The notes under the pieces were generated by a model, which saw nothing but the letters and a program-made list of their open reading frames with translations, was not told the origin of the DNA and did no database searches. Both the position numbers and the translations under genes were made by a program. DNA of 60,605 bases, the filler included. It is 5 parts of 5 records of this genome, joined end to end, with 100 filler letters (N's around TTAATTAATTAA, not from the genome) between each part and the next. Parts side by side here need not be neighbours in the genome. Positions count along the whole stretch, not along the records: positions 23,646 to 46,230 come from SRR31156797_17439; 4 more parts are not named here. One strand, given 5' to 3'. This document shows, in pieces, positions 23,646 through 37,598 of the stretch. Positions within the stretch are counted from its first letter, which is position 1; each line of letters opens with the position of its first letter.

Positions 23646-24233
<588 letters not shown>

Positions 24234-34860: not shown

Positions 34861-35592
34861 TTAAAAATCCTCCGGCAACTCATAATCCTTCTTCTCCGCA
34901 ACATAGCAATATACACAACGATCTTTCTTTATAAAGAATCGAATCAATATCACTCCGGCAATAAACCCACCTATATGGGCGGCCCATGCGACTTTTTGTG
35001 CTCCTTCGGCAAAATGTTCGGATACACCGGAAAAAACCTGAAGTATGAACCAGAGTCCTAAGAATAAGGATGCGGGAATTTTGAAGAAAAATGGAATGAT
35101 GATTACAGGGAATAAAGTCAAAACTTGCCCGTGCGGATAGAGCATCATGTATGCTCCCATGATTCCGGCGACTGCACCGGATGCACCAATTACAGGCGCA
35201 CTGGCAGAGGGGTTGATGATCATCTGTACTGCGATGGCAATGATCCCGCATATCAAATAGAAAACGACAAATCGTCCATGCCCCATGGCATCTTCTATGT
35301 TGTCTGCGAAAATCCAGAGCATCCACAAATTCAAAATGATATGCAGCCAGCCGCTGTGCAGGAACATATAGGTGAGAAGCGGTAATATCCCGGAATCGGG
35401 ATATCCGGCGGCTACTGCCCATTCCGGATTGAAAAATCTTGCCGGGACTACGCCCAGCAGGTGGAAAAGTGCCAGCCGTCCCTGAGGAGTCAGCATCTGT
35501 TCAAACGCAAAGACAATGACGTTTACGATCATGATTCCGCGCAGCACATACGGCGTGATCAGGCAGGGGACGTTGTCGCGGATTGGGATCAT
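34861..35592 (-). CDS. Rhomboid intramembrane serine protease
   Basis: MFLHSGWLHI, GASGAVAG and AHIGGF. Confidence 0.93.
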   Translation of the reverse strand: MIPIRDNVPCLITPYVLRGIMIVNVIVFAFEQMLTPQGRLALFHLLGVVPARFFNPEWAVAAGYPDSGILPLLTYMFLHSGWLHIILNLWMLWIFADNIEDAMGHGRFVVFYLICGIIAIAVQMIINPSASAPVIGASGAVAGIMGAYMMLYPHGQVLTLFPVIIIPFFFKIPASLFLGLWFILQVFSGVSEHFAEGAQKVAWAAHIGGFIAGVILIRFFIKKDRCVYCYVAEKKDYELPEDF

Positions 35593-35681
35593 GGAGTTAG
35601 CCTTTATTGTCGCTTGAGATTTATGAAATTAAATTCAAGCTTAACAGAAAAGTATTATGATCTCTATGGGGATAATCCCGC

Positions 35682-35895
35682 AAAAAACGACCCCCACTAC
35701 ATAAATGCAGCGGGGGCGTGACGAGATTGAGTTGGTAGGTAAACTAGGGGTACTCACTCCCTAAACACTAAACCTGATGCTGAAAGCGGGGTTGGACCTT
35801 GCGTAGAATTCTTGTATGTATAATGGACTTGCATCCTAACAATTAAATTGTGTTCATTCTTCCGACTACGGCCCTGACCACACGCCTCAGGTCTC
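35682..35895 (-). ncRNA. Candidate structured small RNA or leader with own promoter and terminator; family not recognised
   Basis: TTGACT-N16-TATTTT (with extended TG) at 35929-35902. Long 5' irregular stem (ACCTGAgGC/GCaTCAGGT, GGGCC/GGTCC, CGTAG/CTACG), internal GGAT-GCAA-GTCC hairpin, and terminator CCCCCGCTGCAT-tt-ATGTAGTGGGGG followed by T6. Confidence 0.6.
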
Positions 35896-35948
35896 ACTTA
35901 TAAAATAACACATGGGGCGGGTAAGTCAATACTCACAAGCGCGAAAAC

Positions 35949-37598
35949 CTAGCTCTCATCGGGGTTGAACAGCTTTTTCAGGTAGTTCTCGAATGATATT
36001 TCTTTGTCTTTGCGCAGGCCGGCCAGAACTTCGAGAATCCGCGTTGTTTCCGAATCAAGTTTAGCCAGATCAGCGTCATTTTCTATGATAGCGGTACAGC
36101 AATCCATTTTAGATTTTTCATCCCACTGCCATGAATCGAAAACCGCAAGCATTTCAGGATCAATTCCACGCTTCTCGCGCAATTCTCCGGTCCGTTTTGC
36201 TTCCGGTGTACGAACCCCAATTACAGCATCAACCAGTTTCTTGGTATGCCAGCCGCCTTCCAGCAGCAGGGGAACTTCCGCAACTGCCAGCGGTTCGTTG
36301 GAGTTGGTTTTATAGAATTCGGTTACATCGTGTTGCACGATGGGGTGGATTATATTCATGACTTCCCGGCGCAGGTCTTCATTTTCGCACATTGCGGTGA
36401 AGAGTTCAGCCTTATCAATGTTGCCGGTTTCGTTGTCGATGAAACGGTTGCCGAATCTCTGGCGCATCAATTCCCATCCAGCTCCGTCTTTTTCATAGGA
36501 ACGTGCTACGGATTCATCCGCACTGAATGTGGGAATTTTCTTTTCTGCAAGAATTTTTAGTACTGCTGATTTGCCTCCACAGGGCATGCCGATCAAGCCG
36601 ACTCGCTGTATTGATTTATCCAGTGCCTTGAGCATATTTATGAAATCTTCAGGCGGTTCTTGGGTGAAGCTCAGCTCTTCTTCGGAATCAGGGTGAGTGA
36701 ATGATAGAGAGTAGGCGTGCAGCATCTGACGTTCTGCAAGTTTGGCTAATTGCGGCTGCACCTGCTCCCAAATAGCATGCGGCATGGAACCGTATACCTG
36801 ATCTCCAACCAGCGGATGGCCGATGTGTGCCATGTGGACCCTGATCTGATGGGTGCGTCCGGTGAAAATTTTTACTTTAACGAGGCTTGCTCGTCCGGCT
36901 GGATCGGACCAGAGGACTTTATATTCGGAGCGGGCATCGCGTCCTCCTTTGAGGACTACCGCCATTTTGGTCTTATGTACCGGATGTCTGCCCATTGGCT
37001 GGTCAATTTCACCGAACTCACGCTCAGGAACACCATGCACGATCGCAAGATAGGCCTTGTTGACCTCACGATCAGCAAAAGCGGCGGACATGGCAAGGCG
37101 GTCATGTTCATTCAAGGCTACAGTAATAAGGCCTGATGTAAATTTATCCAGACGGTGCACAATTCCGGGTCGCCATTCATCCATATCCCGGATCTCAGGG
37201 AAGTGGTGAATCATGCGGTGAACGAGTGTTCCCGTGGGGCAACTTGGAGCTGGGTGAGTGGTCAGTCCTGCCGGTTTGTTGATAACCGCGATCTTCCCAT
37301 CATTATATATAATTTCCAGCGGCAGGTCTTCGGGGACCAGTGAAGTCAGCTCTGCTTCGCCTTTAAGGGTAAGCTCTTCGTTTCCCATCAATTTCTGGTT
37401 CGGCTTTTTGCAAACCTTGCCGTTTATCTCAGCGAATCCGGCTTTGATCCAGTCTTTTACCTTGCCACGTGAAATGCCTTCTTCTTCCAGGGCGGTTCCC
37501 CAGAATTTGTCCAGCCGGGTATTGCGATCAGGAAATCCTGCGTTTTTTGTCCAGAGAAGCTGGTTCTCATTTTCTTGAAAATCTTCGTTATTGCACAT
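35949..37598 (-). CDS. coaE: RluA/RluD-type pseudouridine synthase fused to dephospho-CoA kinase
   Basis: S4-like N-terminus, NKPAGL, HRLDKFTSG, TGRTHQIRVH and QMLHA, followed in frame by GLIGMPCGGKS, IIHPIV, EVPLLLE and IIEND. Confidence 0.9.
   Translation of the reverse strand: MCNNEDFQENENQLLWTKNAGFPDRNTRLDKFWGTALEEEGISRGKVKDWIKAGFAEINGKVCKKPNQKLMGNEELTLKGEAELTSLVPEDLPLEIIYNDGKIAVINKPAGLTTHPAPSCPTGTLVHRMIHHFPEIRDMDEWRPGIVHRLDKFTSGLITVALNEHDRLAMSAAFADREVNKAYLAIVHGVPEREFGEIDQPMGRHPVHKTKMAVVLKGGRDARSEYKVLWSDPAGRASLVKVKIFTGRTHQIRVHMAHIGHPLVGDQVYGSMPHAIWEQVQPQLAKLAERQMLHAYSLSFTHPDSEEELSFTQEPPEDFINMLKALDKSIQRVGLIGMPCGGKSAVLKILAEKKIPTFSADESVARSYEKDGAGWELMRQRFGNRFIDNETGNIDKAELFTAMCENEDLRREVMNIIHPIVQHDVTEFYKTNSNEPLAVAEVPLLLEGGWHTKKLVDAVIGVRTPEAKRTGELREKRGIDPEMLAVFDSWQWDEKSKMDCCTAIIENDADLAKLDSETTRILEVLAGLRKDKEISFENYLKKLFNPDES

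Follow-up and report, generated by a model that had tools for sequence, protein, structure and literature searches.

A structured RNA gene of an uncatalogued family between rluA-coaE and a rhomboid gene in Maridesulfovibrio

The window analysed here, a stretch of 60,605 nucleotides (nt; filler included) joined from five genome parts, contains within its part from SRR31156797_17439 (positions 23,646 to 46,230) a short intergenic interval, 35682..35929, which we read on the minus strand. The host is a marine sulfate-reducing bacterium of the genus Maridesulfovibrio. The interval lies between an upstream gene that fuses an RluA-type pseudouridine synthase to a dephospho-CoA kinase (rluA-coaE) and a downstream gene for a rhomboid-family protease, both of which are encoded on the same strand as the element between them. 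This element is almost certainly a real structured noncoding RNA (ncRNA) gene, and its family, not yet catalogued, falls within a known type, that of stand-alone structured small RNAs (sRNAs) of bacteria. Its features and those of its surroundings are collected in Table 1.

Table 1. Features of the RNA locus and its flanks, in window coordinates
Feature	Position	Strand	Basis or remark
Whole predicted RNA, ~215 nt, promoter to terminator	35682..35897	-	Signals, fold and alignment; RNA-library contigs over 35720-35881
-35 hexamer TTGACT of the RNA's own promoter	35924..35929	-	Promoter scan; TTGACTT invariant in 9/9 aligned sequences
Extended -10, TGT+TATTTT (TG ahead of hexamer)	35902..35910	-	Hexamer TATTTT at 35907-35902; 16-nt spacer from -35
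Conserved 126-nt 5' domain (P1a/P1b, P2, P3, three-way junction)	35770..35895	-	Models R2 and R3: 140-147 bits in window
P1 closing helix, 5' strand, GACCUGAGGCG	35883..35893	-	Pairs with 35788-35771
P1 closing helix, 3' strand (CGCU, UUCAGCA bulge, UCAGGUU)	35771..35788	-	Pairs with 35893-35883
Three-way junction: P4 (AGAAU/AUUCU), invariant GAAC opening hairpin Pa, hairpin Pb, A-rich joining strand AUUAUACAUACAAG (35824-35810)	35805..35860	-	Most conserved part of the family
Hairpin Pb, GGAU-GCAA-GUCC	35825..35836	-	Third pair covaries: A-U in 16, G-C in 12, C-G in 1 sequences
Second hairpin, UAGGG-AGUGAGUAC-CCCUA, genus-specific 3' extension	35744..35765	-	Fold and alignment
Unpaired C/A-rich tail, UUUACCUACCAACUCAAUCUCGUCAC, genus-specific, possible pairing seed	35718..35743	-	Predicted single-stranded
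Intrinsic terminator (stem 35717-35690, U-run 35687-35682)	35682..35717	-	12-bp stem, 7 G-C pairs, U6
rluA-coaE (RluA-type pseudouridine synthase fused to dephospho-CoA kinase)	35949..37598	-	Upstream; Pfam PF00849 (1e-29), PF01121 (3e-21)
Promoter-like block for rhomboid gene, TAGAGA-N17-TAAGCT with TG, outside the RNA	35638..35666	-	Putative function
Rhomboid-family protease gene	34861..35592	-	Downstream; Pfam PF01694 (1.5e-33)

The predicted RNA is delimited by signals of its own, and both the promoter (TTGACT-N16-TATTTT, at 35929-35902 on the minus strand) and the strong intrinsic terminator named in the original prediction are present. Taken by themselves, such signals are not exceptional: the consensus scans returned three promoter-like sites versus 1.4 +/- 1.1 expected and two terminator-like sites versus 1.1 +/- 1.1 expected, which leaves any one match within chance. 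The minimum-energy fold is moderately unusual (z = -2.28, with 4 of 200 shuffles folding equally well). As single consensus matches lie within chance and the fold energy is moderate, the case rests on comparison with relatives, in which the promoter, the terminator and the fold elements are conserved and thus amount to more than chance. Among nine aligned sequences, little or nothing changes in the -35 motif TTGACTT and the transcribed part, whereas the promoter spacer and the flanks vary; the terminator stem carries compensatory changes in five pairs. Further afield (locus and genome labels, L and G, are our own), TTGAC is found upstream of the genus members and most homologues outside the genus, with TTGCC in L119-L122, and a -10 element resembling (TG)CTTATT recurs family-wide directly upstream; in L068 and L105, the -10 is unclear and no clear -35 is seen. 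A sigma-54 promoter for L068 (TGGCAC-N5-ATGCA, 1440-1500) was considered and is not claimed, because the spacing is wrong in its closest homologue, L105. Judged from promoter spacing alone, transcription of the RNA in the window would start at around 35895 +/- 2.

The minimum-energy fold and the consensus fold of the nine sequences both agree with the architecture originally described. From 5' to 3', it comprises a closing helix, two short helices, a multiloop, the UAGGG/CCCUA hairpin (at ~35763-35745), a C/A-rich unpaired tail and the terminator. What had been described as a long irregular stem at 35771-35893 corresponds to P1, and the two hairpins proposed within the multiloop are also found: the loop is closed by AGAAU/AUUCU and holds a weak AACA/UGUU (or ACAAU/AUUGU) hairpin, Pa, together with the GGAU-GCAA-GUCC hairpin, Pb. 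Across the family, comparative analysis shows a 5' domain in which a long closing helix with interruptions (P1-P3) leads into a three-way junction. The bases of this junction are kept even in divergent homologues, with GARAAYNAAC before Pa, AGG..CC around Pb and then AUU..AAG-N-GUUCU. The loop of Pb is of the GNRA type in part of the family and reads UAAAU or UUAAU elsewhere, its AA being invariant in the first 16 aligned sequences. Other species of the genus retain the stem of the second hairpin, as judged by eye, through changes to UCGGG...CCCG or GGGAG...CUUCC, and they conserve the C/A-rich tail with substitutions that follow no codon pattern.

Covariation supports this fold. In a 30-sequence Infernal alignment, 93.5% of the cells are paired and 23 of the 35 pairs have changed in both partners; in 500 column shuffles, the observed value was never reached for any of five measures, and sliding the 3' partners by one to three columns lowered pairing to 28-49% of cells. 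A set of 16 sequences gave the same picture. P1, P2, P3 and Pb covary well, and nine of the eleven P1 pairs have changed on both sides in some sequence of the 30-sequence alignment, while the P4 pairs are almost invariant and hence uninformative either way. Three points have to be set against the fold. The covariation counts come from Infernal alignments that were fitted to the structure and are therefore biased toward it. Hairpin Pa is weak, its fourth pair being unpaired in 12 of the 30 sequences. Finally, when 21 diverse sequences were aligned with MAFFT and folded with RNAalifold without structural guidance, only part of P1 together with Pb was recovered (13 pairs, eight of them compensatory), a partial recovery that is explained by misalignment of the 3' strands.

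Within the genus, the RNA is both universal among the genomes searched and fixed in its position. A search with the rhomboid protein yielded 48 loci, eight of which, all from Maridesulfovibrio, hold the element just upstream of the rhomboid gene, with 74-96% identity. R2, a covariance model of the 5' domain, then detected exactly one copy per genome in 26/26 Maridesulfovibrio genomes, each time with rluA-coaE upstream and, in 25 of the 26, with the rhomboid gene downstream; in the remaining one, the contig ends. Three elements make up the 3' extension of the genus, namely the second hairpin, the unpaired tail rich in C and A, and a distinct canonical terminator; two members, L067 and L103, are without the hairpin and the tail.

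Several loci of the genus show peculiarities of the 3' part. Between the P1 3' strand and the second hairpin, three species (L094, L096 at 1618-1667 and L100 at 1457-1494) carry six to eight tandem copies of UUAGGU with a period of 6-7. The unit is a repetition of the P1 end (CAGGUUU), and each copy could pair with the P1 5' strand or with ACCUA in the tail; the array could be a product of slippage or provide additional binding sites. In the most divergent member of the genus (L104, genome G281), the partner of the 5' end, CAGGAUCU, is displaced ~45 nt downstream relative to the other species. The inserted segment contains AGAGUGAAC, which resembles the loop of the second hairpin, and the order of the modules may thus differ.

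Homologues also occur beyond the genus. R3, a covariance model built from 30 sequences, matched 20/151 sampled Desulfovibrionaceae genomes at E<=0.1, and by eye we judged 17 of these matches credible in that they keep the junction signature. The other three (L116, L118 and L123) are G-rich palindromes without junction motifs and were dropped as chance matches, as were two R2 matches of ~18 bits (L069 and L070) in which no junction motifs were seen. R1, a narrower first model, had found 7/151 family genomes versus the 20/151 of the more sensitive R3; it gave four clear matches beyond the initial set, of which L052-L054 belong to the genus and L055 lies outside, as well as two weaker ones, L056 (22 bits, later confirmed) and L057 (18 bits, partial). 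An order-level sample gave 5/151 and a class-level sample 15/151 (E<=0.01), with 13 of the latter 15 matches falling within the genus. As 23 candidates per genome were scored in the large samples, these counts are lower bounds, and genomes without a match are ones in which the RNA was not found in those searched rather than ones from which it is absent. Exact-pattern scans returned 11 loci in the species genome collection and three in metagenome contigs, two of which were confirmed by R2. The homologue search and the covariation analysis suggested for the Desulfovibrionaceae thus bear out a structured RNA.

Most homologues outside the genus consist of the 5' domain alone, and all of them are without the C/A-rich tail. 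In ~12 of 16, a U-rich run directly follows the P1 3' strand, giving a closed molecule of 120-160 nt where P1 runs into it. Because the 3' strand leads directly into the U-run, the closing helix outside the genus probably doubles as the terminator stem, a feature that, if correct, sets this family apart as unusual. Some of the credible matches are GC-rich variants, 150-160 nt long, in which hairpin Pa carries a large insertion. The size of ~215 nt originally proposed therefore holds for Maridesulfovibrio, whereas the unit common to the family, as delimited by these alignments, is the 126-nt 5' domain by itself.

No known family accounts for the RNA. A scan of the whole window with Rfam 15 (4227 models) at the gathering score gave no match; relaxing the threshold to E<=10 on 35500-36050 returned nothing relevant, only a chance small nucleolar RNA match on the other strand. 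For twelve divergent loci, E<=1 retrieved only neighbouring transfer RNA (tRNA) genes and one chance, sub-threshold match to a microRNA family (L114). ARAGORN detected no tRNA or transfer-messenger RNA (tmRNA) at the locus. The original claims of novelty and of no match to tRNA, signal recognition particle (SRP) RNA, tmRNA or common riboswitches have thus held up. Canonical 6S RNA (104-112 bits) is encoded at other places in the related genomes G001, G002 and G003, and SRP RNA and 5S ribosomal RNA elsewhere in G001 and G002, so that the RNA is not a stand-in for a missing housekeeping RNA. In the part of the full-text literature that was covered, we found no description of it; the supplementary tables of motif-discovery papers lie outside this scope and might list it.

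Public RNA libraries provide supporting, not decisive, evidence of expression. Part of a 701-nt stretch around the RNA was listed for 21 runs, four of which were examined. Three metatranscriptome runs from three studies each yielded one short contig of 157, 176 or 188 nt with 95-99% likeness, located at 35720-35876, 35721-35878 and 35725-35881, and the substitutions in these contigs are those of sister species. The letters at the contig ends are presumably Illumina adapter, and the end positions (35720-35725 and 35876-35884) are not taken as ends of the RNA. The flanking gene parts of the 701-nt stretch are uncovered in runs X1, X4 and X8, an observation that carries no weight. Run X12 contains a 5.6-kb contig of a relative (<90% alike) that spans both genes and says nothing on discrete transcripts.

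As the best explanation overall, to which we would give about an even chance, we propose an independent, trans-acting structured RNA gene whose junction serves as a binding platform. That the RNA stands alone and acts in trans rather than as a cis leader is, taken separately, probable: it has its own signals, its neighbours outside the genus are unrelated or convergent, and its link to the rhomboid gene is confined to the genus. The alternative suggested alongside the independent sRNA in the original prediction, a terminator-type leader of the rhomboid gene, would be a riboswitch or attenuator whose folded domain senses a signal and whose terminator (35717-35682) gates read-through; we consider it improbable. 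Like terminator-type riboswitch leaders, the RNA has a conserved, junction-centred fold followed by an intrinsic terminator and, in the genus, a co-oriented gene directly downstream; its junction has an aptamer-like look. In 8/26 genus loci, moreover, only ~20 nt, including GGAGG, separate the U-run from the rhomboid ATG. Such a spacer leaves no room for a separate promoter, implying that the rhomboid gene is reached by read-through at these loci, and the cis reading keeps some weight because of them. Outside the genus, a gene for a pyridoxal phosphate (PLP)-dependent enzyme starts 35 nt after the RNA in the same orientation in L055, the only such case. Elsewhere, however, the RNA is followed by convergent genes for BioB-like (L056, L109), DUF362 (L111-L113), histidine kinase (L068, L105) or Mrr (L114) proteins, or by a tRNA gene (L119, L121), and no homologue was found within 3 kb of a rhomboid gene in 40 loci of other genera with models R1 and R3. 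In the window and 13/26 genus loci, a promoter-like motif, T[AG]G[ATG][GA]A-N14-TGNTANNNT, lies between the terminator and the rhomboid ATG; it is absent where the spacer measures only ~20 nt. The distance from the start of the domain to this ATG varies between 193 and 940 nt, and inspection by eye of the window and an L095-type sequence revealed no convincing antiterminator, only 3-5 bp of possible pairing with the 5' arm of the terminator. A conserved 3' untranslated region or processing product of the rluA-coaE messenger RNA (mRNA), or a small-protein gene, is very improbable. The RNA does lie 50 nt beyond the stop codon of rluA-coaE and shares its strand, and a 47-codon GTG frame at 35897-35754, the only sizeable one across the RNA, had been overlooked when the open reading frames were said to be limited to 4 and 26 codons. 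Yet the -35 and -10 elements are conserved with variable sequence between them, and homologues outside the genus have no rluA-coaE upstream. The frame, for its part, is not coding, as one-base indels in relatives disrupt it (columns 18, 34 and 71 of the nine-sequence alignment), and by eye its substitutions show no third-position bias.

Among trans-acting alternatives to a binding platform, an Hfq-independent base-pairing sRNA has a limited chance, in our estimate, of being correct. It would repress or activate mRNAs by antisense pairing, with the folded 5' domain serving mainly for stability and the seed being provided by the C/A-rich tail (35743-35718) in the genus or by the A-rich junction strand family-wide. 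The tail is predicted to be single-stranded, lies just 5' of the terminator and is conserved in the genus, and its words AUCUC, CCCUCU and ACCUCA could, in our reading, pair with Shine-Dalgarno regions; a terminator hairpin with a U-tail, as seen here, is the usual 3' end of an sRNA. These features recall the Hfq-dependent sRNAs of enterobacteria, including, in the genus, the conserved unpaired stretch next to the terminator, but the conserved core of this RNA is a folded junction and not a linear seed, and the bases conserved family-wide lie in and around this junction instead of forming one linear stretch. The tail is absent from L067, L103 and all homologues outside the genus and thus does not embody the common function of the family. 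Hfq (PF17209) was not found in 5/5 RNA-carrying Desulfovibrionia genomes (G001, G002, G014, G016 and G181), with positive controls in five known genomes, and an Hfq-dependent sRNA was accordingly rejected; pairing without Hfq is still compatible with this result. The loose likeness to 6S RNA (RF00013) noted at the outset has not been borne out, and a second, aberrant 6S-type RNA that binds the RNA polymerase holoenzyme is hardly credible. Size, the strong, constitutive-looking promoter and the long, interrupted helix between the near-5' end and a far-downstream sequence are similar, and the presence of the RNA in RNA-library contigs is reminiscent of abundant housekeeping RNAs. However, there is no RF00013 match even at E<=10, the closing helix leads into a three-way junction in place of a central bubble between two long helices, and canonical 6S RNA is encoded elsewhere in three related genomes, as described above.

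The conservation and fold of the RNA, its existence as a gene and its independence of genomic context are established, and for the independent RNA gene that we favour the following mode of action can be envisaged. Transcription on the minus strand would begin near 35895, driven by a strong sigma-70-type promoter (TTGACT-N16-TGT-TATTTT), and end at the terminator at 35717-35682. The first 126 nt of the RNA fold into the P1-P3 closing helix and the three-way junction. The RNA would act in trans, with the conserved junction as a platform that would bind a protein or, with lower likelihood, a small ligand, so that it may work as a decoy, sponge or scaffold. In Maridesulfovibrio, the C/A-rich tail may add a base-pairing arm. 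An RNA whose junction is invariant while its helices vary freely, that is driven by a strong promoter from one gene copy and that forms a closed structure ending in a U-tail is most readily explained as being recognised by its shape, and on this basis we tentatively regard the junction as a platform for a protein or ligand, at somewhat less than an even chance. Some observations count against this interpretation, besides the short spacers and the L055 arrangement. The platform idea follows solely from the pattern of a conserved junction and variable helices, and no candidate partner emerged. Acceptance of the weakest homologues, those of 23-29 bits, relied on visual judgement. The RNA-library contigs, finally, are assemblies that are uninformative on ends, strand and level, and RNA libraries can contain DNA.

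Related systems were compared with these properties. Sponges of the CsrB/RsmZ type share the proposed mode, a trans-acting protein decoy, and CsrA (PF02599) is encoded in 5/5 host genomes tested. The RNA lacks, however, an array of GGA motifs in hairpin loops: in the window, there are at most three, which are partly located in stems and not conserved, and a CsrA sponge was rejected for this reason. A bacterial Y RNA was likewise rejected, because the Ro protein (TROVE domain, PF05731) was found in 0/5 host genomes. Another parallel is provided by orphan structured ncRNAs of bacteria that have come from comparative genomics, such as the raiA motif RNA. Like these, the RNA comes from a gene that stands alone between a promoter and a terminator of its own, has a covarying fold and conserved junction nucleotides, is restricted to one lineage and is present in RNA libraries. 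It differs from them in that it is smaller (~120-215 nt), matches none of the 4227 Rfam 15 models and, outside the genus, apparently uses its closing helix also as the terminator stem.

The flanking genes have features of their own. The pseudouridine synthase (PF00849, plus a weak match to S4) and the dephospho-CoA kinase (PF01121) form a single frame of 549 amino acids, and the fusion is retained throughout the genus, with residues 69-549 covered in 26 loci by tblastn. On the other side, an inverted repeat, GCUUGAAUUU...AAAUCUCAAGC, at ~35612-35640 on the minus strand could fold into a hairpin within the 5' leader of the rhomboid gene, just downstream of the promoter-like block, and recurs in several sister species. 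The longest distance between the start of the domain and the rhomboid ATG, 940 nt in L084, is due to an insertion after the terminator that contains an open reading frame starting MSKQEVINTIRQILKQHP...GSLARGDDRPGSDVDLLVVYDD, which we take to be a look-alike of a nucleotidyltransferase domain (MNT-type antitoxin). L099 has a long spacer too, at 567 nt.

To our knowledge, little is known about the regulatory RNAs of sulfate-reducing bacteria. As no Hfq was detected in the genomes tested, they fall outside the usual enterobacterial model of sRNA action. An RNA that is present in a single copy in every searched genome of the genus, recurs in the wider family and appears in environmental RNA contigs is a promising candidate, either as a central regulator or as an RNA of the housekeeping type. 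It is tempting, although at present rather doubtful, to think of it as the representative of an abundant, Hfq-independent class of riboregulators in the sulfate-reducing Desulfovibrionia, namely a compact RNA built on a three-way junction, whose closing helix would also be its terminator and whose invariant junction would be a specific receptor, with a pairing arm added in Maridesulfovibrio; the receptor would then be either an orphan metabolite sensor with trans activity or a decoy that captures a global regulatory protein. The compact fold, with its conserved junction, variable helices and a closing helix that probably doubles as terminator, offers a defined target for structure probing and the search for partners. 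The covariance model of the family obtained here would, moreover, make it possible to annotate the RNA in marine and sediment sulfate reducers, both in genomes and in metatranscriptomes.

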